A stretch of DNA of 64,000 nucleotides from Shigella phage Sf14. The position numbers were made by a program, and so were the translations under genes. The stretch is from sequence record MF327003, one strand, 5' to 3'. The notes beneath the pieces were generated by a model. The model was not told the origin of the DNA. It ran no database searches and saw only the letters and a list, made by a program, of their open reading frames with translations. Below, one piece after another: positions 16,109-64,000 of this stretch; position 1 is the first letter of the stretch; each line of letters opens with the position of its first letter.

Positions 16109-16119
16109 TTATTTTATAA

Positions 16120-16136
16120 GGGGCTACACAGCCCCT
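16120..16136 (+). other. GC hairpin GGGGCTACACAGCCCC between the two tail fibre genes (no T-run)
   Basis: Perfect 6-bp GC stem; same GGGGCT...AGCCCC arms as hairpins at 48213 and 53075. Confidence 0.4.
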
Positions 16137-48201: not shown

Positions 48202-48212
48202 TAAACTTTGAA

Positions 48213-48228
48213 GGGGCTGAAAAGCCCC
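48213..48228 (+). other. GC hairpin GGGGCTGAAAAGCCCC between prs-like and nampt-like genes
   Basis: Identical 16-mer recurs at 53075-53090; no T-run; sits within a promoter-like context (TTGAAG...TATTGA). Confidence 0.45.
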
Positions 48229-48249
48229 ACTATTGAGAGAGATAAAATT

Positions 48250-50076
48250 ATGTCTAAATCAGTTTATGCAGTACCAGCAGGTCTTAATGCCGATGCCTAC
48301 AAAGCTGGCCACATCTACCAGTACCCAAGTGCTACACAGTATCTTATGCTGAACCTTACACCTCGTGGTGATAAGTGGTTTAACACACCACTTGATATTG
48401 ATGGTGTAGTTGCTTTTGGTATTCAACGTTTCGTTAAAGATTACTTAGTAGACCACTGGAATACTACCTTCTTTGAACGAGATAAGAAAGAAGCTGTTGA
48501 CGAAATCTTAGAAATCATGAACGGTGTTCTCGGTGCAGATGCAATTGGTCGTGAGCATTGGGAAGAACTTCACGATTTAGGTTATCTGCCAGTTGAAGTT
48601 TACTCTGTCGAAGAAGGTACAGTGGTTCCGATGCGTGTACCAATGATTATCTTCAAGAACACTGTAGAAGGGTTCCATTGGGTAGCTGGATATCTGGAAG
48701 ATGCTTTCTCTGCTGAGATTTGGAAAGCTTCTACCATTGCAACTATCGCACTACACTACAAACGTATCTGTAAGCAATGGTCTGGCGTAACCTGTGACAA
48801 TGACTTCCACTTACCTTGGCAGTGTCATGACTTTGCAATGCGTGGTATGTCAGGCTTTACAGATGATGCTTTTAACGCTGTAGGTCACCTGACAAGCTTT
48901 AAAGGTACTGATAGCTTCCCTGCTGTCTACACTGCGAAACGTGCTTATGGTCAGTTCATGACAGTAAGTGATATCGGGAACTCCGTACCAGCTACTGAAC
49001 ACTCTGTAATGTGTGCAAACATTTCATGGAATATGAAAGACTTGTCAGAAGAAAATATTCATTCACAGTACATCATGCAGTCTGATGGTTTACTTGATGC
49101 AAAACGTTGGCGTGGCGAGGTTAAAACCTTTGAGCATTTACTGGTAGACGTCTACCCAACTGGTCTTGCAAGTGTTGTATCAGATACTTACAACTTCTGG
49201 CGTACTGTTACACAGATTCTGCCAGAGCTACGTAATGTAATCCTGAATCGTGATGGTAAGTTGGTAATCCGTCCAGACTCTGGAGACCCTGTTCACATTG
49301 TCACAGGTTACAAAGCCATTGAATGGGAAACTGCTAAGTCAATGTTCTATAAGCACATGAAAGAGCTTGCACCGAACAATACACATCTACATGACACAAT
49401 CTTGAATTGTGAAATGTCTGATATTGGCTTTGGATTCTCTGCTTGGCTAATCTCTGAAGGTTATGAGATGGTTGTTGATAAAGAAGATTTTGAATCTGCT
49501 GATACAATCAACCTTATTACTGCTCAGAAGACTGGACAGTTTACTGTGAAGCGTATGCTGACAGCAGAAATTGACGGAGCTATCCACACGCTGTATAACA
49601 TCTTTGGTGGCACTGTTAACTCCAAAGGGTACAAAGTATTGGATGAGCACATTGGGCTAATCTACGGTGATTCTATCACTCTGGAAAGGGCTAATGAGAT
49701 TCTGTCACGTCTTGCTGATAAAGGTTTTGCAAGTTCTAACGTAGTGTTTGGTGTAGGCTCATATACCTATCAGTACCTGACTCGTGACACCTTTGCATTT
49801 GCTGTTAAAGCAACTCTTGCACAGATGGATGGTCAAGAAATTATGCTGGCTAAAGACCCTAAAACTGACAGTGGTCTTAAGAAGTCTGCTTTTGGTGGAG
49901 TTGTCCCTATGTGGGATGGTGACAAGCTAGTAGCTGTAGATGGTTTTGGCTTTGCAGAGTTTGAAGGTGCAATTGACAATTGTCATAGTGCTTTGAAACT
50001 GGTATTTAGTAACTCGCAACCTTATGGTTACGTTAACCTGCGTGATGTTCGAAATACTATTGACAAGCAACTTTAA
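48250..50076 (+). CDS. nadV: nicotinamide phosphoribosyltransferase-like (Nampt/NadV family) protein
   Basis: 609 aa; size and sequence character of Nampt family; adjacent to Prs-like gene. Confidence 0.7.
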   Translation: MSKSVYAVPAGLNADAYKAGHIYQYPSATQYLMLNLTPRGDKWFNTPLDIDGVVAFGIQRFVKDYLVDHWNTTFFERDKKEAVDEILEIMNGVLGADAIGREHWEELHDLGYLPVEVYSVEEGTVVPMRVPMIIFKNTVEGFHWVAGYLEDAFSAEIWKASTIATIALHYKRICKQWSGVTCDNDFHLPWQCHDFAMRGMSGFTDDAFNAVGHLTSFKGTDSFPAVYTAKRAYGQFMTVSDIGNSVPATEHSVMCANISWNMKDLSEENIHSQYIMQSDGLLDAKRWRGEVKTFEHLLVDVYPTGLASVVSDTYNFWRTVTQILPELRNVILNRDGKLVIRPDSGDPVHIVTGYKAIEWETAKSMFYKHMKELAPNNTHLHDTILNCEMSDIGFGFSAWLISEGYEMVVDKEDFESADTINLITAQKTGQFTVKRMLTAEIDGAIHTLYNIFGGTVNSKGYKVLDEHIGLIYGDSITLERANEILSRLADKGFASSNVVFGVGSYTYQYLTRDTFAFAVKATLAQMDGQEIMLAKDPKTDSGLKKSAFGGVVPMWDGDKLVAVDGFGFAEFEGAIDNCHSALKLVFSNSQPYGYVNLRDVRNTIDKQL

Positions 50077-50090
50077 AACAGTATGATAAG

Positions 50091-50112
50091 AGGCTCCTAC
50101 GGGAGCCTTTTT
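50091..50112 (+). terminator. intrinsic terminator
   Basis: AGGCTCC-TAC-GGGAGCCT followed by TTTTTAATTT; near-identical to arms of terminator at 19193. Confidence 0.7.
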
Positions 50113-50129
50113 AATTTGTGGAGATTACT

Positions 50130-50465
50130 ATGAAAATTAAACAGATGAATGTTAATTTAATCATTGAAGAACGTTGGGAAAACATCAAGCGCCATGAAGA
50201 TGGTCATAAGTTTATCAATGAACTGTTTCAAGCAGCACAATCAGAGTTAGCTTCTGAGATTTATACAACGGTTACTTTGAAGGTTTATATCAAAGGTCTT
50301 CCACAGAACCATCAAGAAGCTCTTGATTTGTTTCAAGAAGAATTTTACAATCCAAACAAAAAGATACTTGAGAATAGTTTTGCAGTATCTTCGAGTATTG
50401 TCCATGACAGGAGTTTTGTCCTATTCAGAACTATAGGAGACAAGGTATGCAAGGTTATTGGTTAG
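50130..50465 (+). CDS. hypothetical protein
   Basis: ATG 50130 with GGAG RBS (track ORF begins at GTG 50118). Confidence 0.3.
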   Translation: MKIKQMNVNLIIEERWENIKRHEDGHKFINELFQAAQSELASEIYTTVTLKVYIKGLPQNHQEALDLFQEEFYNPNKKILENSFAVSSSIVHDRSFVLFRTIGDKVCKVIG

Positions 50466-50626
50466 AAATTGTTCTTTCACTCGGTTGTATAGTTGCTATT
50501 GCAGTGTTACTATGCAAGTACTTCTCAGAGACTGAACCTTGTGATGAATGTGAAGGTTCTGGGGTAGTTGGTATAGGGCATTGTTGCCCTTACTGTAATG
50601 GAACTGGAAAGAAATTTAAAAAGTAA
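50447..50626 (+). CDS. small membrane-anchored zinc-ribbon protein (59 aa, below ORF-track cutoff)
   Basis: AGGAGA RBS 6 nt upstream; N-terminal TM helix; two CxxCxGxG motifs (CDECEGSG, CPYCNGTG); read manually. Confidence 0.4.
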   Translation: MQGYWLEIVLSLGCIVAIAVLLCKYFSETEPCDECEGSGVVGIGHCCPYCNGTGKKFKK

Positions 50627-50627
50627 C

Positions 50628-50655
50628 TTGACAGTGGCATCTATAAAATTATATA
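50628..50655 (+). promoter_or_regulatory. sigma70-like promoter TTGACA-16-TATATA upstream of rIIA-like gene
   Basis: TTGACA 50628-50633, TATATA 50650-50655, then AAGGAG RBS. Confidence 0.5.
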
Positions 50656-50688
50656 GTTTGCCACATCGACAACTAAGGAGATATTCTT

Positions 50689-53061
50689 ATGCGCATGGTA
50701 AATGACCACGCAACGGTAATTAAAAGCTCAAGTACACTGGAAACCTCTCAGGCTCAGATTAAGATGACACCTGAAATGTTCAGTCTTCTAAGCTCAGGTG
50801 TTTACACATATAAAGAACGTGCTGTAATTCGTGAATTGTCATGTAACGCAGTAGATGCTCACATTGATTCTGGTAACGTTGATAAACCTTTCTTGGTTCA
50901 CTTACCAACTCGTTTCGAGCCATTCTTTGAAGTTCGTGACTTTGGTACAGGGCTGACTCATGATAAAGTTATGAAACTTTACATGACCTATGGAGAATCT
51001 ACAAAGAACGATTCAAACGACTACATTGGTGCTATGGGTATCGGTTCAAAGTCACCTTTTGCGATTGCTCAGTCATTCACTGTATCAAGCTATGTTGATG
51101 GTGTAGTTAACAAATACTCAGTTTACCTTGAGAATGGTATCCCTCAAGTAACTAAGTTGACTACTAACCCAACTACAGAGCCAAATGGTTTAGCTGTTCG
51201 AGTAGCGGTATCCGATAACCGTATCAACAAGTTTCATGAAGAAGCGAGCAATGTATACTCGTACTTTAAAGTTAAGCCAGAGTGTAATGTTGAGTACTAT
51301 GACATTCTTGAAGCAATGACTTCCATTTCTCGTGAAGATGGTGTCTATGATGCAATGAAGTACAAAGAGAACTGGCGCTCAAATAGTAACAGCGTCCATT
51401 TCAATGTAATCATGGGTAACATTGCTTATCCGGTTGAAATGGGTGAGTTGCTTGGCTCAGAGTTTACAAGCATTCTGCCTCAGTTCTTCCGTAGTGCTGT
51501 AGACCTTGTTAACATCTACATGCCAATTGGTTCAGTGGCTATTGCTGCATCTCGTGAAGCATTGCAGATGAATGAAACTACTAAGACCAAGATTGTTGAA
51601 GCTGTGAAGAAAATCACTAAGACAATCGTAGAAGATGTGGTAAAAGAGGTTGCTAATAAGCCAACTCTGATTGATGCTGCTCAAGCCTATGATACCATGA
51701 GGAAGGAGGCTCGTGAAATCTTTATTCACGTCCAAGATTCTCTGGAATGGCAAGGCCAGAACTTGAAAAAGCTTGAACAAAAGCTGCTAGGTATTCGCCG
51801 TGGTCAGTTAACTGAAGCAGATGGTTCTCCGTCATTCTTGAAAGATGATGCAGGTAACTTGAGGCTTGACAAAGATGGTAATCCAGTTCCTAATATTGGT
51901 AATCTGTATGAACCTGTAGCATACTACAAGTACAGCAGTCTGGAGAACCGTATTCGAGCAACTTCAGCAACTTATTCACAAGATGCAGCAATGTTTAGTA
52001 TCTTTGGTGCAATGAGTAAAGATAAGTTGAGCAACTATTTGTTCCTTATCAATGACCGTCGAAACAAGAACGGGTCTGAAAAGACAACTGGTAAAAACCA
52101 GATTATCCGTGGGGCTTGCCGTGACCGTGAACAGGAAGACTCTAACTTCCGTCGCTACAATGGTATTGCTTTCTTGTTCAGCAGTCAGCAGCAATTTGAT
52201 GAGTTTGTAGATTTGCATATGCTTGACAAGAGTCTGTTAAGTGTGCATACAATGTCATCTAAAGAGCACCACTATGAGAAACGTACTATTGTACGTGGTG
52301 TTGTAAAACTGTATAAAGCATTTATATGTCCAAATACCGACATGATTCGCTATACAGAGGTTAAAGAGAACTTTGATGAGATTGAAGAACCACAACTGTA
52401 TATCAAAGCACAGAGTGATGAAGTGATTGGTGGAATCTTCTCATGTTCACCAGAACGTGCTGCAACGTTGATGACAGAGTTAACTGGACAGTCAGTTTAT
52501 GTCTTCCGTAAAGCCAACTGGAAAAAGATTCCTGAAGATTGGACAGAAGTCAATGAACAAGTATTGAAAGATTTTATTGATGCCACACATTGGATTGAGT
52601 ATCATCGTTTCTTGACTCACCAGTATATGACAAATAATCACGATATCACTGATTGTAATGTTATTTCTCGAAACTTTACGTTTGCTGATAAGCGTAAGTC
52701 CAGAGGCCACATTTACAGTAAAGATTTTAAGAAGACTATTTTCTTAGAAGGGAATGAAGAGGCTATAGAAGCAATGTTTGGACGCTTGGCATATACTGCT
52801 GCACCAGTTGCTTACAAAGATATTACCAGCACTCTTGATACCATTCGTAGGAATATGAGAGGTTCTTGTAAGCCAAGAAAGGTTCTGGATAATGCTAAGA
52901 AGCGTCTTGAAAGCAAGTTCAAAGATTACTTTGAGAAACGCCGTAAAGAAAACTTCTTGCTTTCTAATCTGGATTGGAATAAAGTATCACCAGTCGAAGT
53001 TGGTAAGTTTTTAGGTTTTGACACTAAGAGCATTCCAGAAGATACTGTATGCTGGGATTAA
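50689..53061 (+). CDS. rIIA: rIIA-like protein (GHKL/HATPase-type ATPase fold)
   Basis: N-box ELSCNAVDAH, G1 DFGTG, G2 GAMGIGSKSPF; 790 aa; followed by rIIB-sized gene. Confidence 0.55.
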   Translation: MRMVNDHATVIKSSSTLETSQAQIKMTPEMFSLLSSGVYTYKERAVIRELSCNAVDAHIDSGNVDKPFLVHLPTRFEPFFEVRDFGTGLTHDKVMKLYMTYGESTKNDSNDYIGAMGIGSKSPFAIAQSFTVSSYVDGVVNKYSVYLENGIPQVTKLTTNPTTEPNGLAVRVAVSDNRINKFHEEASNVYSYFKVKPECNVEYYDILEAMTSISREDGVYDAMKYKENWRSNSNSVHFNVIMGNIAYPVEMGELLGSEFTSILPQFFRSAVDLVNIYMPIGSVAIAASREALQMNETTKTKIVEAVKKITKTIVEDVVKEVANKPTLIDAAQAYDTMRKEAREIFIHVQDSLEWQGQNLKKLEQKLLGIRRGQLTEADGSPSFLKDDAGNLRLDKDGNPVPNIGNLYEPVAYYKYSSLENRIRATSATYSQDAAMFSIFGAMSKDKLSNYLFLINDRRNKNGSEKTTGKNQIIRGACRDREQEDSNFRRYNGIAFLFSSQQQFDEFVDLHMLDKSLLSVHTMSSKEHHYEKRTIVRGVVKLYKAFICPNTDMIRYTEVKENFDEIEEPQLYIKAQSDEVIGGIFSCSPERAATLMTELTGQSVYVFRKANWKKIPEDWTEVNEQVLKDFIDATHWIEYHRFLTHQYMTNNHDITDCNVISRNFTFADKRKSRGHIYSKDFKKTIFLEGNEEAIEAMFGRLAYTAAPVAYKDITSTLDTIRRNMRGSCKPRKVLDNAKKRLESKFKDYFEKRRKENFLLSNLDWNKVSPVEVGKFLGFDTKSIPEDTVCWD

Positions 53062-53068
53062 AAATAGT

Positions 53069-53097
53069 TTGACAGGGGCTGAAAAGCCCCTTAGAAT
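53069..53097 (+). promoter_or_regulatory. promoter TTGACA-17-TAGAAT with GC hairpin in spacer
   Basis: TTGACA 53069-53074, spacer is GGGGCTGAAAAGCCCCT, TAGAAT 53092-53097. Confidence 0.5.
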
Positions 53098-54278: not shown

Positions 54279-54304
54279 GGGGCTGCTTCGGCAGCCTTTT
54301 TTAT
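54279..54304 (+). terminator. intrinsic terminator
   Basis: GGGGCTGC-TTCG-GCAGCC followed by TTTTTTATTT. Confidence 0.7.
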
Positions 54305-54332
54305 TTGAAAAATGTGCAGGTTAGTGTATAAT
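54305..54332 (+). promoter_or_regulatory. near-consensus sigma70 promoter TTGAAA-16-TATAAT
   Basis: TTGAAA 54305-54310, TATAAT 54327-54332; spacer contains TGTGCAGGT, the same 9-mer that recurs in the 58.9-kb repeat array. Confidence 0.6.
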
Positions 54333-54363
54333 TGTCTGCATGTTTAACAAAATAGGAGTGCAA

Positions 54364-54912
54364 ATGAAGAAATTTGTTTTAGGTTTGTGCTTATTCTTTA
54401 CAGCACATTTAGCTACAGCATCTGACTGTCCAGAGCTTACAATCAGCCAGAAAGTTAATATGTTAAAAGCATATAACTATGGCGAAGGACAGATGGGAAA
54501 AGGTTGGGGAATCCCTTTAGCAGCTATAGCCTTACAAGAGTCACAATTAGGTGTCATGTTAGAAAATAAAAAGACTCATGATTATGGTGTTTTCCAGAAT
54601 CACTTGAAGACTGTTGTAAAGCGTAACAAGGTATCTCCAAAGGTTGCTAAGAAGAAGCTAGTAAGTGACTTCCATTACTCAGCGAAAGAGGCTCATAAGG
54701 AGCTATTATTCTGGACTAAGGTTCATGGTAACCCAGATGGAAAGTACTCTATGAAGCGTGTCCTAGCTTCTTATAATGCTGGTTACAAATACAAGATTCC
54801 AAAGGCTAGACAATACTCTCAAGATGTGTACAATAACATGAAACTGCTGGCTCAATGTGAGTTTGCAACAAACATTAAAAAGGTAAAATATGAGCGAATC
54901 AAAACAATTTGA
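54364..54912 (+). CDS. lytic transglycosylase (SLT domain) with N-terminal signal peptide; endolysin candidate
   Basis: AGGAG RBS; signal peptide MKKFVLGLCLFFTAHLATA; SLT motifs ALQESQLG, GVFQ, SYNAG. Confidence 0.5.
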   Translation: MKKFVLGLCLFFTAHLATASDCPELTISQKVNMLKAYNYGEGQMGKGWGIPLAAIALQESQLGVMLENKKTHDYGVFQNHLKTVVKRNKVSPKVAKKKLVSDFHYSAKEAHKELLFWTKVHGNPDGKYSMKRVLASYNAGYKYKIPKARQYSQDVYNNMKLLAQCEFATNIKKVKYERIKTI

Positions 54913-57862: not shown

Positions 57863-58055
57863 TTTCTGCACTAAGTGTTCTGTTGAGATGTTTGGAAAAG
57901 ACACAGGGGACTTAAAAGGCCTCTTTACAAAAGCAGAGTTTGAAGCTGGTTCAGCAATGCCAGTAATCTGTGAAGGTTGTGGTGCTTTATGGGTAGACCA
58001 TGAAGGTAACCGAGTTAAACCATCTGAAGATAACGAACGTTGGGAGCATTACTAA
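57855..58055 (+). CDS. small zinc-binding protein
   Basis: CTKC...CEGC cysteine pairs; 66 aa. Confidence 0.3.
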   Translation: MADFCTKCSVEMFGKDTGDLKGLFTKAEFEAGSAMPVICEGCGALWVDHEGNRVKPSEDNERWEHY

Positions 58056-58056
58056 T

Positions 58057-58851
58057 ATGGGTATCGTAAAAATTATTAAAGGTGATATCTTTAAAGACTT
58101 TGATGGTAAGAAATTTGATATCATTGGTCACGGTTGTAACTGCATGAACTTGATGGGTGCAGGTATCGCAGCAACAATTGCCAAACGTTACCCAAAAGCT
58201 TATGAAACTGACGCTGAAGTTTATGCTACAGTAGGTGGTGAAAATCATAACCCTAAGCATCTAATGCTTGGTAACATCTCTGTAGCACGTTTTAAGCAGG
58301 GTCGAATTGCTAACCTTTACACTCAGGTTATCACTGGCAAAGATGCACGATACAACGCCTTAGAAGCAGCTTTACAGCGTCTTAACAACTACTGTAAAGT
58401 TAATCAACTTAAGAAAGTTGGGCTTCCGATGATTGGTGCAGGGATTGGTGGTCTTGATAGCATGGCTGTGCTGTCCATTATCAACCAGACTATGAAGGAT
58501 GTTGACGTTTATATGTATGTCTATGAAGATAAGATGTACAGTCAGTTGACTAGTCCTGTTACTGGTTGGGAGAACTTCAGTGAGCCTCAATACTTTGATG
58601 GTGTTGCTGTGGTAGGCAAGGATAAAGTTACCCTCAAGGTGAAGCGTAATGGCAAGGTACACACCAGTTACCCTCCGGTTGAGAAGTACAATCGAAGTAA
58701 CGCTCAAGTTACCCACCCGTTACAAGGCCACCACCACAGAGCGGTAACGTTTGGCGATGATGCAAGTGTATATATCAATGCGACTACAGAAGAGTTTGCA
58801 GAAGATTATATCACACATGAAAACGTAAACTATGTTGAAGCACGTAACTAA
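58057..58851 (+). CDS. macro domain (ADP-ribose binding/processing) protein
   Basis: IIKGDIF...DIIGHGCNCMNLMGAGIAATI resembles the macro-domain GDIT...NAAN...GGGVAGAI core. Confidence 0.5.
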   Translation: MGIVKIIKGDIFKDFDGKKFDIIGHGCNCMNLMGAGIAATIAKRYPKAYETDAEVYATVGGENHNPKHLMLGNISVARFKQGRIANLYTQVITGKDARYNALEAALQRLNNYCKVNQLKKVGLPMIGAGIGGLDSMAVLSIINQTMKDVDVYMYVYEDKMYSQLTSPVTGWENFSEPQYFDGVAVVGKDKVTLKVKRNGKVHTSYPPVEKYNRSNAQVTHPLQGHHHRAVTFGDDASVYINATTEEFAEDYITHENVNYVEARN

Positions 58852-58875: not shown

Positions 58876-58924
58876 AAGCCCTCCAAAGTTTGAGTTTTAA
58901 ATCTCAGGTAAGGAGGGCTTTTTC
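58876..58924 (+). terminator. putative terminator with long loop
   Basis: AAGCCCTCC ... GGAGGGCTT arms followed by TTT. Confidence 0.4.
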
Positions 58925-59104
58925 ATTTCAAATCTGTGCAGGTATAGTTGAGTAGAACTCTGGACAGATTTCTTTAACTGAACTCCAAAGGGAAATTTCA
59001 TTTTCAAAACGTGCAGGTCTAGACTCCAAAGAGCTTTTTCATTTTCAATCTGTGCAGATGCAGTTGGACTCCAAAGGGAAAATTCATTTTCAAATTGTGC
59101 AGGT
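58919..59104. repeat. degenerate tandem repeat array, 4 units of about 41-45 bp
   Basis: Units carry ACTCCAAAG (58982, 59023, 59068; CTCCAAAG also at 58881), TTCATTTTCAA and TGTGCAG(G/A)T; followed by C-rich tract 59121-59156. Confidence 0.7.
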
Positions 59105-59276: not shown

Positions 59277-59305
59277 TTGACTTCATAAATCCAGTCTTAT
59301 AGTAT
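59277..59305 (+). promoter_or_regulatory. early-type promoter TTGACT-17-TAGTAT (type 1 cassette)
   Basis: Followed by conserved leader TCAACGGG-hairpin-CAACAATCCTAAACTGGAGAATCT-A-rich-ATG. Confidence 0.55.
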
Positions 59306-59355
59306 TTGCATCAACGGGAAACATCCCAACAATCCTAAACTGGAGAATCTAAAAA

Positions 59356-59562
59356 ATGTTATATCAACGTGAGTTAATGATTGTTGACAACAACAAAACA
59401 AATAAACGTCGTTTCTATATGCTAATTTGTGATGTTTGGCAACGCATTTCAGAAAAGGATTTTGATAAATATGTTGATACGTCAATCAGGTCAGATTGTT
59501 ACTTGACAACTCATACAAGACAGTTTACAAGGCATACAGCAATTTATTATTACAACGTTTAA
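59356..59562 (+). CDS. early small protein
   Basis: 68 aa; conserved leader with GGAG RBS. Confidence 0.4.
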   Translation: MLYQRELMIVDNNKTNKRRFYMLICDVWQRISEKDFDKYVDTSIRSDCYLTTHTRQFTRHTAIYYYNV

Positions 59563-59573
59563 AAGGCTTGACA

Positions 59574-59735
59574 ATGATTAAAGAAAGCGATGTAATACAA
59601 TACAAAGATTTAGACGGATACCCAAAAATTGGTAAAGTCTTCTATCTCTATAAGTCTGCTATGGGTAATGATTGTATAGCCCTTACCAATGGCGACAAAA
59701 TAACCATGAAATATTTTATAAAAATTATTGCATAA
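59574..59735 (+). CDS. early small protein (53 aa)
   Basis: ATG with AAAAGG RBS; track ORF begins upstream at non-ATG. Confidence 0.3.
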   Translation: MIKESDVIQYKDLDGYPKIGKVFYLYKSAMGNDCIALTNGDKITMKYFIKIIA

Positions 59736-59740
59736 AGTGC

Positions 59741-59819
59741 TTTACATGGGGTTTAAAATCTAGTATCTTAAGCCCCAGATAAAGAGCTTTACAAACAATC
59801 CTAAACTGGAGAATCTAAA
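59741..59819 (+). promoter_or_regulatory. type 2 promoter/leader cassette (TTTACA-17-TATCTT with embedded hairpin, then conserved leader)
   Basis: TTTACATGGGGTTTAAAATCTAGTATCTTAAGCCCCAGATAAAGAGCTTTACAAACAATCCTAAACTGGAGAATCTAAAA; repeated at 4 other sites. Confidence 0.45.
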
Positions 59820-60116
59820 ATGTTTATTGCCGCAAACGTTAGAACTAAATTAAGCCAGCTATTAAGTAATATCCAATTCATTGAATCTATGCGCCGTACA
59901 TCTGAAGCCGTAGAGTGGTATCATGGAAAGATTAACAAAAAGGAAGTAATAATTTGTGTATGGAACTTTTGTAAAGAATACAAAAAACCATTGCTTCAGG
60001 TTGATATCTATGATAACACTAATAAGTCATCGATTAAGACCACTAGAGATATGGTTGATTCATATGAAATTAGTCACACTGGTAAACTATTCCACAAAGG
60101 TAAAAACAAATGTTAA
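59820..60116 (+). CDS. early small protein
   Basis: 98 aa behind type 2 cassette. Confidence 0.4.
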   Translation: MFIAANVRTKLSQLLSNIQFIESMRRTSEAVEWYHGKINKKEVIICVWNFCKEYKKPLLQVDIYDNTNKSSIKTTRDMVDSYEISHTGKLFHKGKNKC

Positions 60117-60457
60117 TCACATACGTTGCAATTTTTATCTCTATTGTGGCGCTCTATAAAGCCTTACAAGCGCACAGTATAGCTAATAAGGCACTTACAA
60201 GGGATTTAAAAATAAACCTTGTACGGGGCTTTTTAGAGCGTTTAAGCTTAGAACAATTGAAACGCTTAGAGATGAGCTTTCGATTCAAAGCAGAAACATA
60301 CCGGATTGATAACATCCTAGACGGTGATTTTAAATTAATCAGTGATTATGACATACTTCTTGAGTCAATTCAAGATATAAACCTGAAAGATTATTATATC
60401 GTGATAGCGCAAGAAATTAATAAAAAAGAGCTTGCAATGCAGAATCAAAACAAGTAA
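60110..60457 (+). CDS. early small membrane protein
   Basis: N-terminal TM helix (ITYVAIFISIVALY); 115 aa. Confidence 0.35.
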   Translation: MLITYVAIFISIVALYKALQAHSIANKALTRDLKINLVRGFLERLSLEQLKRLEMSFRFKAETYRIDNILDGDFKLISDYDILLESIQDINLKDYYIVIAQEINKKELAMQNQNK

Positions 60458-60460
60458 AGT
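60432..60460 (+). promoter_or_regulatory. early-type promoter TTGCAA-17-TAAAGT (type 1)
   Basis: Followed by ATTCATCAACGGGGCAAGATAGAAGCCCCAACAATCCTAAACTGGAGAATCTGAAAATG. Confidence 0.55.
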
Positions 60461-60516
60461 ATTCATCAACGGGGCAAGATAGAAGCCCCAACAATCCTAA
60501 ACTGGAGAATCTGAAA

Positions 60517-60789
60517 ATGTATACTACTAATGACGGTCGAACTTTGAACGTAACTTTAAAACACTATATAGACGGTGTATTAAACTTTGAAGAGTTAAGA
60601 GCAGAACAGCACCTATTAGATTGGCAAGTAGCAGGTTTACAAAAAACCGCCACAGGATATGGAAAGAAAATTCCTACATCTTGGAAAGTTCGATACCTTG
60701 GAAAGTTACGCAGAATTTATCAAGATGTTTATAGTAATAGCGGTGTAAGTTACATTATTGTTAGCGGTAAAAAATTGTATTTAGTCTAA
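60517..60789 (+). CDS. early small protein
   Basis: 90 aa behind type 1 cassette. Confidence 0.4.
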   Translation: MYTTNDGRTLNVTLKHYIDGVLNFEELRAEQHLLDWQVAGLQKTATGYGKKIPTSWKVRYLGKLRRIYQDVYSNSGVSYIIVSGKKLYLV

Positions 60790-60797
60790 TAAATTGC

Positions 60798-60879
60798 TTT
60801 ACATGGGGTTTATAGTTAGATAAGATAAGCCCCAGATAAAGAGATTTATCTAAAACTAACCTAAACTGGAGTATCAAAA
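60798..60879 (+). promoter_or_regulatory. type 2 promoter/leader cassette (variant)
   Basis: TTTACATGGGGTTTATAGTTAGATAAGATAAGCCCCAGATAAAGAG...CCTAAACTGGAGTATCAAAAATG. Confidence 0.4.
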
Positions 60880-61287
60880 ATGACTAATGCTAATCACAAA
60901 GAAGTTGCAATTTTGAAAGCACGTTTGACCATTAACCGCATCAACATTGTAACATCAGCAGCACCAGACGAAACTCTGCATAATATCATCGGTAAAATTC
61001 AGGGCGCAGTAGTAGACACAAAACAGCTTAAAGAATCCTTGCAAGATGTAGCAGCAGGGGCTATAATTGACGGTGCTCAATATGAGATGAAGGAAATGCT
61101 GTCAAAGTCAAAAGTAATGAATAAAGAACTTGACTTGAAAATGTTTCGATTTGCTGTTAAAGTGTGGCTATGTGTTGATTTTGATGCAAACTTTGCAATT
61201 GCTGATTTCTTTGCAACATGGTTACAGCGTAACTTACCGGTTGAAGTCTTCCGTGAAATCTGCGATGCAATTTATTCAGAGATTTGA
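60880..61287 (+). CDS. early protein
   Basis: 135 aa. Confidence 0.4.
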   Translation: MTNANHKEVAILKARLTINRINIVTSAAPDETLHNIIGKIQGAVVDTKQLKESLQDVAAGAIIDGAQYEMKEMLSKSKVMNKELDLKMFRFAVKVWLCVDFDANFAIADFFATWLQRNLPVEVFREICDAIYSEI

Positions 61288-61316
61288 TTGACATTGCAAA
61301 AGCATAGTAGTAGAGT
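61288..61316 (+). promoter_or_regulatory. early-type promoter TTGACA-17-TAGAGT (type 1)
   Basis: Consensus -35; followed by the same leader and hairpin as at 60461. Confidence 0.6.
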
Positions 61317-61372
61317 ACTCATCAACGGGGCAAGATAGAAGCCCCAACAATCCTAAACTGGAGAATCTGAAA

Positions 61373-61621
61373 ATGTTTAATATGTTGAATATCCCTGACA
61401 CTTGCCGACTCTTAACACAATTTGATAACCTTGGCAAGCCGTTTTTATATCATATGCCAGATAACACTGCAAAAACTTACAGTTACATTGTAAACCGTTT
61501 TACGGCTTATGGTTCAAAGTATGGCTATAATGTCAAGACTCAAAAAGTGACTTTGTTCACAAGTATTGAAGAGTTACCAACTGTTGCCGTTAAACTAATC
61601 TTTACAAAGAAAACTAAATAA
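61373..61621 (+). CDS. early small protein
   Basis: 82 aa. Confidence 0.4.
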   Translation: MFNMLNIPDTCRLLTQFDNLGKPFLYHMPDNTAKTYSYIVNRFTAYGSKYGYNVKTQKVTLFTSIEELPTVAVKLIFTKKTK

Positions 61622-61626
61622 AGTCC

Positions 61627-61705
61627 TTTACATGGGGTTTAAAAGCTAGTATCTTAAGCCCCAGATAAAGAGCTTTACCAACAATCCTAAACTGGAGAAT
61701 CTAAA
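61627..61705 (+). promoter_or_regulatory. type 2 promoter/leader cassette
   Basis: TTTACATGGGGTTTAAAAGCTAGTATCTTAAGCCCCAGATAAAGAGCTTTACCAACAATCCTAAACTGGAGAATCTAAAATG. Confidence 0.45.
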
Positions 61706-62263
61706 ATGAAATGCTTCCACGGTACTACACAAGAAAACTTTGTAAACCTTATTAATGGCGGTGATAAACCATCAGGAGTCTGGAATTGCTCTGATATGGA
61801 TGGATGTTTTTATGTCTACCCTGTTAGCAAGTTCTATGATGTAGAAAATCTGGATGACGAACAAATCATAGATGAAGGTATTAAAAACGCGCTTGATAGC
61901 GCAAGCATTACAGCAGCCTATCAAATGAAGTCACAAAAGCTTGTTATCTTGGAACTGGATATTCCAGAAGATGATTTACAAGATGACTGGAGCTGTGAGA
62001 ACATGAGCGACGTAGCAAGCTTTACAGAATATTTCGATAAAGAATGGATTAAAAAGGTTTACACAACTGAATTTAATGCTATGTATGCGCCTTTCTTTGT
62101 CCCTAACCTGAATAATAGGAACTTGGGTTATATACCAGATGAATTACGCAACATTGCGGCAATAGTCCAACGTAGTGATGAGATGAGCAATGTATATTGT
62201 GATATCTTTGACACAATGCAATTCAACGTAACAGAAACGGCTATAAACGACTTAACAGCATAA
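61706..62263 (+). CDS. early protein, unknown
   Basis: 185 aa, acidic. Confidence 0.4.
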   Translation: MKCFHGTTQENFVNLINGGDKPSGVWNCSDMDGCFYVYPVSKFYDVENLDDEQIIDEGIKNALDSASITAAYQMKSQKLVILELDIPEDDLQDDWSCENMSDVASFTEYFDKEWIKKVYTTEFNAMYAPFFVPNLNNRNLGYIPDELRNIAAIVQRSDEMSNVYCDIFDTMQFNVTETAINDLTA

Positions 62264-62326
62264 ACGATAGAATCATACCAGTTCACTAGAAAAGCCCCGC
62301 ATAGGGGCTTACAAGAGGCTTAAAAC

Positions 62327-62557
62327 ATGCTTACTACAATCTATCTTATTCTATCTATCTGCAATGGTTCACAGTGTGACTTTAAAGGTTTAGAAGAGTT
62401 TACAGGTAGCGAAAATAATGCTATTGTTGCTTGTCAGATAGCAAGGCAAGATTACCCTGCATCAGATGATATCCAATGTTACTATAAATCAGAAGATGAT
62501 TATGGCATTTACTTTGACAGTGTGAATGGTGATTATGAAATTCTTATAGAAAAGTAG
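62327..62557 (+). CDS. early small protein
   Basis: 76 aa; preceded by hairpin AAAGCCCC-GCATA-GGGGCTT and AGAGG RBS. Confidence 0.35.
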   Translation: MLTTIYLILSICNGSQCDFKGLEEFTGSENNAIVACQIARQDYPASDDIQCYYKSEDDYGIYFDSVNGDYEILIEK

Positions 62558-62586
62558 TTGACACTGAAAACGCAAACAAGTAAAGT
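62558..62586 (+). promoter_or_regulatory. early-type promoter TTGACA-17-TAAAGT (type 1)
   Basis: Followed by ATTCATCAACGGGAAGGAAACTTCCCC...CCTAAACTGGAGAATCAAAAATG. Confidence 0.6.
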
Positions 62587-62646
62587 ATTCATCAACGGGA
62601 AGGAAACTTCCCCACTAAACAAAATTCCTAAACTGGAGAATCAAAA

Positions 62647-62868
62647 ATGTTGCAAGTTCTTAACGTAAAAACCATTGATTTTAAATTCTCAAATGTTCGT
62701 CGTACCTATTTACAGCCATTTAATAACCCTGTTAGAATTCCCAACGATGACGCTAAAAAGTTGATTGATGAAATTCTAGCTAATGGCGGTTATCTGGCTA
62801 GTCATAAGCAGTATAATGATGAGGCTGGAAGCCTGATAAATGAGTTTACATATTATTACTACAAATAA
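62647..62868 (+). CDS. early small protein
   Basis: 73 aa. Confidence 0.4.
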   Translation: MLQVLNVKTIDFKFSNVRRTYLQPFNNPVRIPNDDAKKLIDEILANGGYLASHKQYNDEAGSLINEFTYYYYK

Positions 62869-62880
62869 CTAATAAAGTCC

Positions 62881-62959
62881 TTTACATGGGGTTTATAGTT
62901 AGATAAGATAAGCCCCAGATAAAGAGCTTTACCAACAATCCTAAACTGGAGAATCTAAA
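62881..62959 (+). promoter_or_regulatory. type 2 promoter/leader cassette
   Basis: Same element as at 60798 and 61627. Confidence 0.45.
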
Positions 62960-63157
62960 ATGTTATCACTGATGCAAAAACTTTCTACCTTGTGGTGTTT
63001 AAAAGGTGTAGAGTGTAACCTTAACATGGAAGGTTCAAAGATAGACCTAAAAATAGTATACAATGGAGAAATACTATTCTCACAGAATAGCAGTCATCCA
63101 CACTTCAAAGATAATGCAATTATGGCCGTGAATAATCTGATGGATAGAATTTATTAA
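62960..63157 (+). CDS. early small protein
   Basis: 65 aa. Confidence 0.35.
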   Translation: MLSLMQKLSTLWCLKGVECNLNMEGSKIDLKIVYNGEILFSQNSSHPHFKDNAIMAVNNLMDRIY

Positions 63158-63162
63158 AGTGC

Positions 63163-63242
63163 TTTACATGGGGTTTAAAAGCTAGTATCTTAAGCCCCAG
63201 ATAAAGAGCTTTACCAACAATCCTAAACTGGAGAATCTGAAA
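63163..63242 (+). promoter_or_regulatory. type 2 promoter/leader cassette
   Basis: TTTACATGGGGTTTAAAAGCTAGTATCTTAAGCCCCAGATAAAGAGCTTTACCAACAATCCTAAACTGGAGAATCTGAAAATG. Confidence 0.45.
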
Positions 63243-63584
63243 ATGGCCTATGTAACAATTATCACCGATAAAGAAAATTCGTCATGGTCTACCCAAGTTA
63301 ACGACAAAATGAAACCTATGCAGTGTCTCAAGTACTTTGAGCAATGGAACAGGGGAGAAGATGTAAGCCCCTTTCAAGTGATGCAGATTGTACATGTTGA
63401 CAATGAAGGGAATAAAACTACCCTTAACACTGAATACTATGCTACACGTTTCGAAACTCGCAAATCAGCTATGCAGGAGTTAAGAGAAAAGGGATATAGT
63501 CACATTGCCGCGCTCATTTGGTCTGATTTGCTTAAAAAACAGTCATTAACCTATGTTAAGCCAGAAAAAATCTTTATAAGCTAA
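63243..63584 (+). CDS. early protein, copy 1 of tandemly duplicated gene
   Basis: 113 aa; identical to product of 63659..64000. Confidence 0.45.
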   Translation: MAYVTIITDKENSSWSTQVNDKMKPMQCLKYFEQWNRGEDVSPFQVMQIVHVDNEGNKTTLNTEYYATRFETRKSAMQELREKGYSHIAALIWSDLLKKQSLTYVKPEKIFIS

Positions 63585-63658
63585 TCAACAACTTATAAAA
63601 ATCTTTTGAAAAACAGATAAAGAGCTTTACCAACAATCCTAAACTGGAGAATCTGAAA

Positions 63659-64000
63659 ATGGCCTATGTAACAATTATCACCGATAAAGAAAATTCGTCA
63701 TGGTCTACCCAAGTTAACGACAAAATGAAACCTATGCAGTGTCTCAAGTACTTTGAGCAATGGAACAGGGGAGAAGATGTAAGCCCCTTTCAAGTGATGC
63801 AGATTGTACATGTTGACAATGAAGGGAATAAAACTACCCTTAACACTGAATACTATGCTACACGTTTCGAAACTCGCAAATCAGCTATGCAGGAGTTAAG
63901 AGAAAAGGGATATAGTCACATTGCCGCGCTCATTTGGTCTGATTTGCTTAAAAAACAGTCATTAACCTATGTTAAGCCAGAAAAAATCTTTATAAGCTAA
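63659..64000 (+). CDS. early protein, copy 2 of tandemly duplicated gene
   Basis: Translation identical to 63243..63584; stop codon is the last 3 bases of the window. Confidence 0.45.
   Translation: MAYVTIITDKENSSWSTQVNDKMKPMQCLKYFEQWNRGEDVSPFQVMQIVHVDNEGNKTTLNTEYYATRFETRKSAMQELREKGYSHIAALIWSDLLKKQSLTYVKPEKIFIS

Follow-up and report, generated by a model that had tools for sequence, protein, structure and literature searches.

A GC stem-loop repeated in a Felix O1-like phage genome as the probable stem-loop part of PeSL-type cassettes

Introduction

Why does one short GC-rich hairpin recur at separate gene junctions of a phage genome? The window analysed here is a 64,000-nucleotide stretch of Shigella phage Sf14 (MF327003), a Mooglevirus genome (Felix O1-like, Ounavirinae). 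The first-pass annotation had reported an identical 16-nt hairpin at two promoter-like sites and a related one between tail-fibre genes, judged that none was a standard intrinsic terminator, and offered RNA processing sites, protein-binding sites or a phage-specific promoter class as explanations, to be checked by a motif search against chance and by conservation in related phages.

Results

The repeated hairpin exceeds chance and lies between genes

The exact 16-mer, GGGGCTGAAAAGCCCC, occurs on the + strand at 48213-48228 and 53075-53090, and a third hairpin, GGGGCTACACAGCCCC, matches the motif at 16120-16135, which confirms the hairpins of the first-pass annotation. The exact 16-mer had zero matches in shuffled sequences, and GGGGCT-N4-AGCCCC (pattern GGGGCTNNNNAGCCCC, at most one mismatch tolerated) is found three times in the window against 0.01 expected. 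All three copies are intergenic, intergenic DNA making up about 7% of the window; the 48213 copy seemed "coding" because a mechanical ORF begins at TTG 48208, and the Nampt start in annotated relatives is the ATG matching 48250. The sites, together with a hairpin whose G4/C4 arms are in reversed order, are as follows.

16119-16136, + strand: T-less hairpin AGGGGCT-ACAC-AGCCCCT between two tail-fibre genes (stop 16108, ATG 16154)
48213-48228, + strand: T-less hairpin GGGGCT-GAAA-AGCCCC between Prs (stop 48201) and Nampt (ATG 48250)
53069-53097, + strand: composite promoter and stem-loop before rIIB, recognised by sequence (11/12 consensus matches)
62292-62310, + strand: T-less hairpin AAGCCCC-GCATA-GGGGCTT, reversed arms, 5' of the ORF at 62327-62557

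The genome contains two classes of hairpin, U-tract terminators with UUCG or UACG loops and T-less G4/C4 hairpins. Within 8 nt past the stem, the three G4/C4 hairpins have 0-3 U and the canonical terminators of the same genome 5-7, which bears out the earlier judgement that the former are not standard intrinsic terminators. Two promoter-terminator sites provide a contrast.

50060-50111, + strand: promoter TTGACA-N16-TATGAT followed directly by a canonical terminator (AAGAGGCTCC-TACG-GGAGCCTTTT + T)
54281-54332, + strand: canonical terminator past rIIB (GGCTGC-TTCG-GCAGCC + TTTTTT) followed by promoter TTGAAA-N16-TATAAT

The former, which is conserved in relatives, has its expected start site inside the hairpin (-18.2 kcal/mol, z = -5.1); the counterpart of the 54281 hairpin is annotated as a terminator in phage Mordin. 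A caveat is that stable hairpin words of this kind are generic: the 16-mer is present also in at least 120 unrelated IMG/VR contigs, where about 40% of the copies are followed by a T-run. The recurrence of the GC hairpin is nonetheless genuine, and Felix O1-like phages conserve it.

The copy before rIIB is built into a probable promoter

Among the three copies, that at rIIB alone lies in a credible promoter. The -35 TTGACA (53069-53074) and the -10 TAGAAT (53092-53097), both plain sigma-70 consensus, are separated by a 17-nt spacer that is filled by a 7-bp stem with a GAAA loop, AGGGGCT-GAAA-AGCCCCT (53074-53091). The rIIA stop codon, 7 nt 5' of the -35, is followed in order by an A/T-rich stretch (TAAAAATAGT), the -35, the G4/C4 stem-loop, the -10, a leader, a ribosome-binding site and the ATG. 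Folding of this region is dominated by the hairpin (about -13.5 kcal/mol, z = -3.0), and the block TTGACA(A)GGGGCT-N4-AGCCCCTTAGAAT is the best-conserved stretch between the two genes, kept in 29 of 30 relatives, whereas the adjacent leader varies. In Felix O1 (PMC3185647, Table 3), the peak for gene 2 (rIIB) comes at 10 min and that for gene 1 (rIIA) at 25 min, consistent with rIIB having a promoter of its own.

Position is conserved also for the copies at Prs-Nampt and between the tail-fibre genes, but a weak -35-like word is all the promoter sequence they have, with no -10 that could be used. No credible -35/-10 pair was found at the Prs-Nampt site, where the best hexamers, TTGAAG and TATTGA, are spaced by 18 nt and relatives do not keep the flanks as hexamers; the description of two promoter-like sites thus holds for rIIB and fails here, and we read this copy, like the tail-fibre one, as a "half cassette". 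The Prs-Nampt hairpin lies 7 nt ahead of a GAGAGAG ribosome-binding site, between genes whose Prs and Nampt identities Pfam confirms. The same junction in Mooglevirus and Felixounavirus has an invariant stem with GAAA, GCAT or TGTA loops, and the hairpin is missing where an HNH gene intervenes between prs and nampt. The tail-fibre hairpin is preceded by TTTATA, followed by TAGAAA and a GAGGA ribosome-binding site, and kept in four Mooglevirus loci. At the same junction Felix O1 has AGGGGGCT-GTAC-AGCCCTCT with a G.T wobble, a homologue that TransTerm called as predicted terminator t76 (PMC3185647).

Pairing is kept while loops change

The three hairpins, all in conserved core regions outside the plastic region, hold their positions across genera, with differing loops and occasional G.U wobbles on the sense strand; with the excess over chance, this goes against both parts of the refutation that the first-pass annotation had set, namely chance frequency and no conserved position in relatives. 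The GGGGCT/AGCCCC stem is invariant over three sites and two genera, which also fits a sequence-specific binding site. At the rIIA-rIIB junction of more distant relatives, structure rather than sequence is conserved: Kolesnikvirus has a different hairpin, GGGCTG-GAAA-CAGCCC, and no promoter, and relative L030 has AAGTGGTC/GGCCACTT lying over the -10. Since the Kolesnikvirus hairpin occurs without a promoter, promoter recognition is not what the hairpin serves; with hexamers that are plain sigma-70, this tells against the proposed phage-specific promoter class. Mooglevirus and Kolesnikvirus loops at the rIIB and Kolesnikvirus junction sites stay GAAA or GCAA on the sense strand, which are GNRA loops, an RNA-specific stability motif; Felixounavirus loops are non-GNRA (TTGA/TCAA). 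With the variant arm AACCCC (L015, L031), the sense strand has a mismatch where the antisense strand has a wobble.

The design recurs in early-gene cassettes

A promoter with a hairpin over the -10 or just past it is repeated in about nine early-gene cassettes at 59-64 kb, of two types.

59729-59820, + strand: first of five type B early cassettes (families D1, D3, D4)
Starts at 60786, 61615, 62869 and 63151: other type B cassettes (families D1, D3, D4)
59748-59776, 60805-60833, 61634-61662, 62888-62916 and 63170-63198: type B hairpins
61288-61372, + strand: type A early cassette (families D5, D7)
59277-59355, 60432-60516 and 62558-62646: other type A cassettes (families D5, D7)

In type B, the promoter TTTACA-N17-TANNNT has its spacer and -10 covered by a 9-bp G4/C4 hairpin with outer stems CTTTA/TAAAG, whose G4/C4 arms are 17 nt apart as against 4 nt at the motif sites, and a conserved leader (AACAATCCTAAACTGGAGAATCT..ATG) follows. 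These hairpins fold at -19 to -24 kcal/mol; their inner-stem variants covary, Kolesnikvirus having a compensatory GGTG/CACC. Type A, which shares the leader and ribosome-binding site, consists of TTGACA-N17-TAGAGT/TAAAGT/TAGTAT, then CATCAAC, then a hairpin of variable sequence (GGGGC..GCCCC, GGGA..TCCC, GGGAAG-GAAA-CTTCCC) at about +4 from the expected start. Cassette hairpins at 59-64 kb show compensatory stem changes, and cassette edges coincide with indel or replacement breakpoints between close relatives (type B, indels at 59734/59822, 61620 and 63614; type A, 60472/60525 and 61324). Neither this roughly nine-fold repeat nor the match to PeSLs described below figured in the first-pass annotation.

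Discussion

We propose, at a probability of about 0.6, that the hairpin represents the stem-loop in a regulatory cassette of the PeSL (promoter-early stem-loop) type in a Felix O1-like phage: a design already known, here extended to another group of phages, rather than a signal of a new type. Judged from the sequence, it would most likely function at the RNA level as a leaky attenuator and stabilise the 3' ends of upstream transcripts, the embedded promoter restarting transcription; among the options first offered for the hairpins, the RNA-level one comes closest to this conclusion, and protein binding is a possible but less economical reading. At rIIB, RNA polymerase coming from rIIA would transcribe the hairpin, the A/U-rich stretch right after it being the -10 hexamer itself, and the hairpin would work there as a leaky attenuator while also capping the 3' end, shielding the upstream message from 3' exonucleases. 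A new start by host sigma-70 polymerase would fall about 7 nt beyond the -10, so that the new rIIB transcript would lack the hairpin, and attenuation combined with a fresh start would uncouple rIIB from rIIA. Neither Nampt nor the distal tail-fibre gene has its own promoter, so the hairpins before them must be read through; these can be no more than partial attenuators or mRNA-stability elements, which would set how much upstream product is made relative to downstream product. The identical stem across sites likely reflects both G4/C4 as a preferred stable stem and recombination of the cassettes with each other. In E. coli, intrinsic termination is normally poor at a hairpin that lacks a U-tract, which counts against the PeSL-type reading, as do the invariance of the stem, the non-GNRA loops of Felixounavirus, the AACCCC variant, the fact that this phage is not T4-like and the core position of the three copies.

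Other roles in RNA can be weighed against the same data. The hairpin could serve the genes downstream of it (Nampt, rIIB and the distal tail-fibre gene) rather than those upstream, by marking an RNase E-type processing site, capping the 5' end of the processed mRNA or insulating the ribosome-binding site from the sequence before it. It ends 6-7 nt from the ribosome-binding site at the Prs-Nampt and tail-fibre junctions, and the type A hairpin at about +4 occupies the classical position of a 5' stabiliser, so the phage does use 5' hairpins. We nonetheless think this unlikely, as transcription at rIIB and in type B would start past the hairpin, leaving the main downstream transcript without it, and the spacing from hairpin to ATG is 50 nt at rIIB, not 21 or 18. 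A nut/boxB-like RNA site, recruiting an antitermination factor for read-through of the terminators after Nampt (50092) and rIIB (54281), is highly improbable, even though GGGGCU-GAAA-AGCCCC resembles the boxB of lambda nutR and each early-region copy has a strong terminator downstream. The Felix O1 authors do call the passage of transcription past many terminators unknown (PMC3185647). However, the loop, which in boxB is the recognition element, is the least conserved part here (GAAA, GCAA, GCAT, TGTA, TTGA, TCAA, ACAC, GTAC), no boxA-like word is conserved alongside the hairpin, one copy lies between late tail-fibre genes with no terminator to pass, and transcripts from the rIIB promoter would be without the hairpin.

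Two further readings place the function, or its absence, in the DNA. A dimeric phage or host protein could bind the GGGGCT-N4-AGCCCC palindrome as an operator, shutting the early rIIB promoter and acting as a roadblock or for another purpose elsewhere. Invariant arms around a 4-nt centre that varies freely, and is even inverted, are the pattern of two dimer half-sites, the position between -35 and -10 is a classical one for a repressor, and the temporal control of Felix O1 transcription is described as unknown (PMC3185647). We consider this quite unlikely, given that a promoter to regulate exists at only one of the three sites, that the wider arm separation of type B ill suits one fixed dimer geometry, and that the Felix O1 (tail-fibre), Kolesnikvirus and L030 junctions keep pairing with other stems, G.U wobbles included; moreover, unrelated phages widely carry the exact 16-mer, which in many cases forms the stem of an ordinary terminator, and no candidate binding protein was identified. 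The hairpins might instead be remnants of mobile cassettes, at most hot spots of DNA-level recombination or template switching, with no part in gene expression at the three junctions considered here. Cassette edges do coincide with breakpoints of indels, replacements and duplications, the loop dinucleotide is repeatedly inverted on identical flanks, which shows palindrome activity in DNA, and insertion of the HNH gene went with loss of the Prs-Nampt hairpin. Yet genera whose flanking genes differ by more than 20% keep all three hairpins at the same junctions, and stems held intact while neighbouring intergenic bases change argue for purifying selection on structure, making a mere scar improbable.

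Among known systems, the boxB of lambda nutR (GCCCU-GAAAA-AGGGC) shares with the window's hairpins a short GC stem, a U-A closing pair, a GAAA(A) purine loop and a place in early transcripts 5' of terminators; it differs in that the window's loop is not conserved and has no boxA and no known N-like protein beside it, and one copy is in a late operon. E. coli REP sequences (malE-malF) and Rhodobacter puf hairpins are intercistronic mRNA stabilisers and, like the hairpins here, stable stem-loops without a U-tract that are read through between co-transcribed genes; such structures would block 3' exonucleases and raise the upstream product over the downstream one. REPs, however, are longer, host-specific repeats with a consensus of their own. 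Intrinsic terminators have in common a GC-rich 6-7 bp stem, a tetraloop, an intergenic position and co-orientation with transcription, the 16-mer being often followed by a T-run in other phages and t76 having been so called in Felix O1. By contrast, the window's hairpins have neither a U-tract nor an upstream A-tract, their loops are GNRA or other rather than UNCG, and promoterless genes downstream need read-through.

PeSLs were defined in the T4-like phages RB49/phi1, T4/PST and KVP40/nt-1 (Arbiol et al. 2010, PMC2839356; Comeau et al. 2014, PMC4122927), as Gn-loop-Cn stem-loops mostly between -35 and -10 or over the -10. Inserted between a strong promoter and lacZ, one PeSL stem-loop lowered lacZ expression about as much as the rrnB T1 terminator did, and degraded PeSLs that retain the -35 and stem-loop and have lost the -10 are described (PMC2839356; PMC4122927). 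The window belongs to Ounavirinae rather than Straboviridae, its three copies lie in the conserved core (rII, NAD salvage, tail fibres) rather than a plastic region, two of them have no promoter, and it is known from sequence, whereas terminator and promoter activity and mini-circles were demonstrated in RB49/phi1. The phi1 PeSLs, inspected directly, nevertheless have the same layout and are T-less (for example, TTGACAGGGGATCGGTGATCCCCTTATAAT and TTGACGCGGGGAGAAATCCCCGCTATAAT), TTGACAGGGGATCGGTGATCCCCTTATAAT comparing with the window's TTGACAGGGGCTGAAAAGCCCCTTAGAAT. Both show a stop codon, an A/T-rich stretch, a sigma-70 -35, a T-less Gn-loop-Cn stem-loop in the spacer or over or just past the -10, the -10 itself, a leader, a ribosome-binding site and an ATG, in cassettes repeated between small early ORFs with edges at indel or replacement breakpoints. 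They also share "half" elements that keep the -35 and stem-loop without a -10, and the ribosome-binding word GGAGAATC(A/T)AAAATG is found in phi1 and in the window alike.

A GC-Rich Hairpin Recurs at Three Intergenic Sites

The 16-mer GGGGCTGAAAAGCCCC occurs exactly twice in the window, and the pattern GGGGCTNNNNAGCCCC, with up to one mismatch allowed, gives three matches where 0.01 is expected. The sites, together with the promoter at one of them, are:

48213-48228, + strand: hairpin GGGGCTGAAAAGCCCC between Prs and Nampt
53075-53090, + strand: hairpin GGGGCTGAAAAGCCCC between rIIA and rIIB
16120-16135: third match, GGGGCTACACAGCCCC, between two tail-fibre genes
53069-53097, + strand: rIIB promoter, TTGACA-17-TAGAAT, 11/12 sigma-70 matches

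No match to the exact 16-mer appeared in 100 dinucleotide-preserving shuffles, and all three hairpins are intergenic in a window with only ~7% intergenic DNA. A mechanical ORF opening at TTG 48208 takes in the 48213 copy, but in annotated relatives Nampt begins at an ATG that matches position 48250. The stretch of Sf13 that the window does not cover (1-30 kb) added no further GGGGCT-N4-AGCCCC. The shuffles and the positional conservation described below rule out a chance origin. The first-pass annotation had reported one hairpin at two sites and a related one at the tail fibres, and had named a motif search and conservation in relatives as its test; every copy was located, the motif stands well above chance and its positions are kept, so that the observation holds. 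A collection-wide exact scan shows the 16-mer to be a generic word: unrelated viral contigs, at least 120 of them, contain it, and ~40% of those copies are followed by a T-run; thus, the identity of the two copies is no evidence of a special recognition sequence.

By sequence similarity the window belongs with the Felix O1-like phages (Mooglevirus, Ounavirinae). The 47-54.5 kb region is 96% identical to Shigella phage Sf16 across its full length, and 58.8-64 kb is 97% identical to Shigella phage Sf13 over 82% of its length. Pfam identifies Prs (Pribosyltran), Nampt (NAPRTase and NAMPT_N) and the two tail-fibre neighbours (gp37/gp10-type proteins), while rIIA and rIIB take their names from annotation in relatives.

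A Credible Promoter Surrounds One of the Three Hairpins

The rIIB site reads TAA-AAATAGT-TTGACA-GGGGCTGAAAAGCCCCT-TAGAAT. The 17-nt spacer consists entirely of the hairpin, and its 7-bp stem pairs the final A of the -35 with the T preceding the -10. A stop codon lies in the A/T-rich stretch before the -35, and a ribosome-binding site and start codon follow on the 3′ side (AAAGAGAGATATTGAAATG). The Prs-Nampt hairpin is flanked by CTTTGAA and ACTATTGAGAGAG, with a ribosome-binding site beginning 7 nt past the stem; its best hexamers, TTGAAG and TATTGA, are poor and 18 nt apart. The tail-fibre site reads TTTTATA-AGGGGCTACACAGCCCCT-AGAAAGAGGA, and a transcript begun after its TAGAAA would be without a ribosome-binding site. 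A near-consensus sigma-70 promoter is absent at both 48213 and 16120, where only TTTGAA and TTTATA, respectively, precede the stem and no usable -10 follows. Judged by the hexamers, a credible promoter is present at rIIB only, and the earlier description of two promoter-like sites holds for rIIB and fails for Prs-Nampt.

Two Classes of Intergenic Hairpin

In a census covering the window, Felix O1 and Kolesnikvirus SE5, intergenic GC hairpins fall into two classes. In a canonical terminator, an A-tract leads into the stem, the loop is UUCG, UACG or longer, and 5-7 of the 8 nt that follow are U; examples from the window are:

19192: canonical terminator (census)
37980: canonical terminator (census)
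46483: canonical terminator (census)
50088: canonical terminator (census)
54281: canonical terminator (other scans)

The second class, T-less G4/C4 hairpins with 0-3 U in the tail, includes our three sites (tails ACUAUUGA, UAGAAUAC and AGAAAGAG). A terminator scan covering the 48213 and 53075 copies called neither. The missing U-tract, in a genome with a separate canonical class, excludes a standard intrinsic (rho-independent) terminator, in line with the first-pass annotation; an opposite-strand terminator is rejected as well, since the reverse tails (TTCAAAGT, TGTCAAAC, TATAAAAT) are not T-runs. RNase III processing requires ~20 bp or more of dsRNA and these stems have 6-7 bp. For the tail-fibre site, a late promoter of the T4 type (TATAAAGA in loci L042 and L043, TAGAAAGA in the window) was considered and dropped. 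The curated covariance models of Rfam 15 gave no match at gathering score in the whole window.

Two other arrangements of hairpins were observed. At 50060-50111, a promoter (TTGACA-N16-TATGAT) overlaps the end of Nampt with a strong canonical terminator 5 nt on, so that the expected start lies inside the 5′ arm of the terminator; upstream transcripts would stop there, and transcripts from the embedded promoter would be without the full hairpin. This arrangement is kept in 7/7 close relatives, E9 and Felix O1. At the end of the early block in Felix O1 (12316-12363, locus L044) and Sf13 (28178-28221, locus L172), both classes stand in tandem: 12 nt past a T-less GGGGCT-AAAT-AGCCCC hairpin is a canonical terminator with the same arms in reversed order, AGCCCC-TATTTAAA-GGGGCT plus TTTTTT.

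The Hairpin Is Conserved at Its Junctions

Among 30 IMG/VR loci encoding rIIB relatives, 29 carry TTGACA(A)GGGGCT-N4-A(G/a)CCCCTTA(G/a)AAT, the stem being invariant in these save for one G-to-A change in two loci. This promoter-hairpin block is the best-kept stretch of the rIIA-rIIB intergenic region, and the leader just 3′ of it varies. Loops differ by group: members of the Mooglevirus group have GAAA or GCAA, and Felixounavirus has TTGA or TCAA. The 30th locus (rIIB identity 56%) retains TTGACA and has a different hairpin, AAGTGGUC/GGCCACUU, across the -10, with a U.G wobble. In Kolesnikvirus, the rIIA-rIIB junction carries GGGCTG-GAAA-CAGCCC and no sigma-70 hexamers, and the following junction carries GGGGC-GAAA-GCCCC. 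The Prs-Nampt hairpin has an identical stem in Mooglevirus (loops GAAA, GCAT) and in Felixounavirus E9 (loop TGTA). The tail-fibre hairpin is retained in four Mooglevirus loci; the corresponding Felix O1 junction reads AGGGGGCT-GTAC-AGCCCTCT, with a G.T wobble. The presence of hairpins at these junctions across genera, in Kolesnikvirus even where the promoter is missing, argues that the hairpin is older than, and independent of, the promoter around it at rIIB. The phage-specific promoter class suggested in the first-pass annotation is thereby discarded, because the hexamers are of sigma-70 consensus and the Kolesnikvirus rIIA-rIIB hairpin has no promoter at all.

Two kinds of local variation were seen. 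In loci corresponding to window 48202-48249 (L045, which is Felix O1 83205-83723, and also L033 and L034), an HNH homing-endonuclease gene lies between prs and nampt and the intergenic hairpin is gone, the gene appearing to have replaced the hairpin-bearing spacer. In the Felixounavirus rIIB loci (L009-L031; window 53081-53084), the hairpins with the two loop states, GGGGCTTTGAAGCCCC and GGGGCTTCAAAGCCCC, are exact reverse complements. TTGA and TCAA occur on identical flanking haplotypes (L009 vs L011, L018 vs L025, L010 vs L021) and are scattered across a neighbour-joining tree, with no TA or CG intermediate seen. The pattern looks like recurrent inversion of the palindrome's central dinucleotide, perhaps via template switching or intra-palindrome recombination.

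Related Cassettes Organize the Early Region

Ten small ORFs in the 59.2-63.7 kb region have in common the leader AACAATCCTAAACTGGAGAATCT(G/A)AAAATG, preceded in nine cases by one of two cassette types. Type A (four copies) reads TTGACA-N17-TA(A/G)AGT, CATCAAC, a hairpin at ~+4 and then the leader; its hairpins differ in sequence with pairing retained (GGGGC/GCCCC, GGGA/TCCC, GGGAAG/CTTCCC). In type B (five copies), a 57-nt three-tier inverted repeat, AAAGN-CTTTA-CAT-GGGG(T)TTA ... TAAGCCCC-AGA-TAAAG-AGCTTT, precedes the leader. Every type B copy contains TTTACA-N17-TANNNT, and the hairpin covers the spacer and the -10. Its inner-stem variants covary (TTTAA/TTAAG vs TTATC/GATAG), a G.U wobble is found on the sense strand, and Kolesnikvirus type B shows the compensatory change GGGG/CCCC to GGTG/CACC between identical flanks. 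Both types share with rIIB the order of stop codon in an A/T-rich stretch, promoter, ribosome-binding site and start codon. The stem-loops fold at energies between -13 and -22 kcal/mol (z = -2.7 to -3.5). At the three original sites, the stems do not vary among relatives that can be aligned, and more distant relatives have flanks that do not align; the case for a conserved structure is accordingly qualitative, drawn from junctions that carry different stems, from G.U wobbles and from compensatory changes among the type B cassettes.

The ribosome-binding words are GAGAGAG or GAGGA at rIIB, Nampt and the tail-fibre genes, and GGAG in all early cassette leaders. RegB-like activity would be relevant to this use of GGAG, since it would bear on cleavage at GGAG in those leaders, and a Mordin homologue of the gene after rIIB (54340-54912) is annotated as T4 endoribonuclease RegB-like with a lysozyme-like domain; RegB identity is not claimed here, Pfam giving just a sub-threshold SLT transglycosylase match (18.1 bits vs a cut-off of 21.3).

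The cassette region is plastic, aligning with most relatives in 3-8 pieces at 63-82% coverage. By contrast, 47-54.5 kb aligns in one piece at 100% coverage, and the three original hairpin sites all lie outside the plastic region. Alignment breaks against Sf13, Sf18 and Michonne (59734/59822, 60472/60525, 61324/61620 and 63614) all fall inside cassettes; the break at 59734/59822 is a three-gene indel bounded by a cassette, and that at 61324/61620 is an ORF replacement. A perfect 300-nt tandem duplication (63198-63497 = 63614-63913), not present in Sf13, Sf18 or Michonne, includes a whole 113-aa ORF (63243-63584 = 63659-64000). The duplication has its junction within the cassette leader AGATAAAGAGCTTTACC, and its second copy is missing the half-cassette that bears promoter and hairpin. 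Farther upstream, after the terminator of ORF 58000-58851, four tandem ~40-nt copies ending TCATTTTCAAA-NN-TGTGCAGGT occupy 58904-59104 and could be decayed terminator/promoter copies or iterons. TGTGCAGGT also fills the spacer of a TTGAAA-N16-TATAAT promoter at 54297-54332, just past the rIIB terminator.

A Proposed Mechanism and Its Alternatives

From the observed structure, placement and conserved pairing of the hairpins, the two hairpin classes and the behavior of cassettes at breakpoints, we infer the following steps. The hairpin would form in transcripts coming from upstream, and these would be attenuated at it and left with a protected 3′ end because it directly precedes the A/U-rich -10 hexamer; a new transcript, without the hairpin, would then begin at the embedded promoter. 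Such attenuation and restart fits the RT-PCR data for Felix O1, in which the peak comes at 10 min for gene 2 (rIIB) and at 25 min for gene 1 (rIIA) (PMC3185647). The GNRA loops GAAA and GCAA are kept in sense orientation at the rIIB site of Mooglevirus and at both Kolesnikvirus junctions, which fits a hairpin acting in RNA. Because Nampt, Kolesnikvirus rIIB and the distal tail-fibre gene each lack a dedicated promoter, the hairpin must be leaky there, and at promoter-less sites it would act as an attenuator or stability element rather than a full stop. A literature search found no transcript start or end maps for Felix O1-like phages.

The invariant arms and freely varying center of GGGGCT-N4-AGCCCC would also suit a DNA operator in which the arms are palindromic half-sites for a binding protein. 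This explanation is weakened by the lack of a promoter at two of the three sites, by the 17-nt distance between the arms in type B, a spacing other than N4, and by the different stems found at the same junctions in relatives. A 5′-cap or translation-insulator role fits the hairpins of the two sites that have no promoter; at rIIB and in type B it does not, since the new transcript there would be without the hairpin. The variability of the loop makes a lambda-type nut (boxB-like) antitermination site unlikely: a conserved loop and adjacent boxA are expected, yet the loop is the most variable part (GAAA, GCAA, GCAT, TGTA, TTGA, TCAA, ACAC and GTAC among close relatives) and the flanks are not conserved between the three sites. 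A pure recombination scar is similarly improbable, given that stems are intact across genera.

Comparison with the PeSL Elements of T4-Like Phages

We consider the hairpins best read as parts of a cassette of the promoter-early stem-loop (PeSL) type, complete at rIIB and present as half cassettes, a stem-loop with no working -10, at the other two sites. PeSLs, described in T4-like phages by Arbiol et al. 2010 (PMC2839356) and Comeau et al. 2014 (PMC4122927), run from an A/T-rich stretch through a sigma-70 promoter and a Gn-loop-Cn stem-loop to a ribosome-binding site and an ATG, and degraded PeSLs have lost the -10 and retain the -35 and stem-loop (PMC2839356; PMC4122927). One PeSL stem-loop placed before lacZ lowered expression about as much as rrnB T1; attenuation together with strong early transcription has been shown only for RB49/phi1, with lacZ fusions (PMC2839356).

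PeSL-type elements had not been described in the Felix O1-like group, whose members are widely used for typing and biocontrol of Salmonella and E. coli. The Felix O1 genome paper lists 57-bp and 39-bp direct repeats, uninterpreted, and no rIIB promoter (PMC3185647); these repeats are the cassettes described here, so the PeSL-type reading explains them. It also supplies a concrete promoter map that includes the overlooked rIIB promoter, bears on the organization and timing of Felix O1-like transcription, an explicit gap according to PMC3185647, and suggests, in a form that can be tested, how small early genes come to be gained, lost and duplicated rapidly. A putative compact element joining one transcript's end and the next one's start in 29 bp would be a useful part for phage engineering. 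The finding widens the known range of PeSLs past T4-like phages and does not overturn current understanding.

Trait by trait, the comparison with PeSLs runs as follows. The near-consensus sigma-70 promoter with a ~17-nt spacer is found at rIIB but not at 48213 or 16120. The stem-loop of a PeSL lies in the spacer, over the -10 or just downstream, as it does at rIIB (spacer), in type B and in type A (~+4). Like PeSLs, the repeats at 59.2-63.7 kb cluster in a plastic region, in among small ORFs whose function is unknown, and the upstream stop codon in an A/T-rich stretch, the 3′ ribosome-binding site and start codon, and the indel or replacement breakpoints in or beside cassettes (here vs Sf13, Sf18 and Michonne) are all shared. 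A further PeSL trait, shown for RB49/phi1, is mini-circle excision of the flanked ORFs. The host genome differs, being a T4-like myovirus for PeSLs and Ounavirinae (Mooglevirus) here, and we therefore file the cassettes as PeSL-like in a new lineage; the literature search returned the term PeSL for phages only in the two T4-like papers.

Direct inspection of the Krischvirus phi1 genome (EF437941) extends the comparison to sequence. Its PeSLs TTGACAGGGGATCGGTGATCCCCTTATAAT and TTGACGCGGGGAGAAATCCCCGCTATAAT have the same layout as TTGACAGGGGCTGAAAAGCCCCTTAGAAT of the window, are also T-less and place the stem-loop identically. Besides layout, the Felix O1-like cassettes share with them the stem-flanking words TTGACAGGGG ... 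CCCCTTAKAAT and the ribosome-binding word CTGGAGAATCAAAAATG, a 17-mer that is the longest common form. The shorter word GGAGAATC(A/T)AAAATG occurs 12 times in phi1 105-135 kb (L173) and in nine cassette leaders of the window (59342-63660), in both phages on the coding strand only. Exchange of cassettes from one phage family to another could account for this sharing, as could convergence toward a strong initiation region of E. coli, and the combined likeness in layout, flanks and ribosome-binding word could stem from whole-cassette transfer rather than convergence. That GGGGCT-N4-AGCCCC is the recognition site of a Felix O1-group regulator timing early transcription is less likely than a broader idea, itself improbable at roughly one chance in five, namely that PeSL-type cassettes are no T4-like peculiarity but a regulatory module that unrelated virulent enterobacterial phages share and can exchange.
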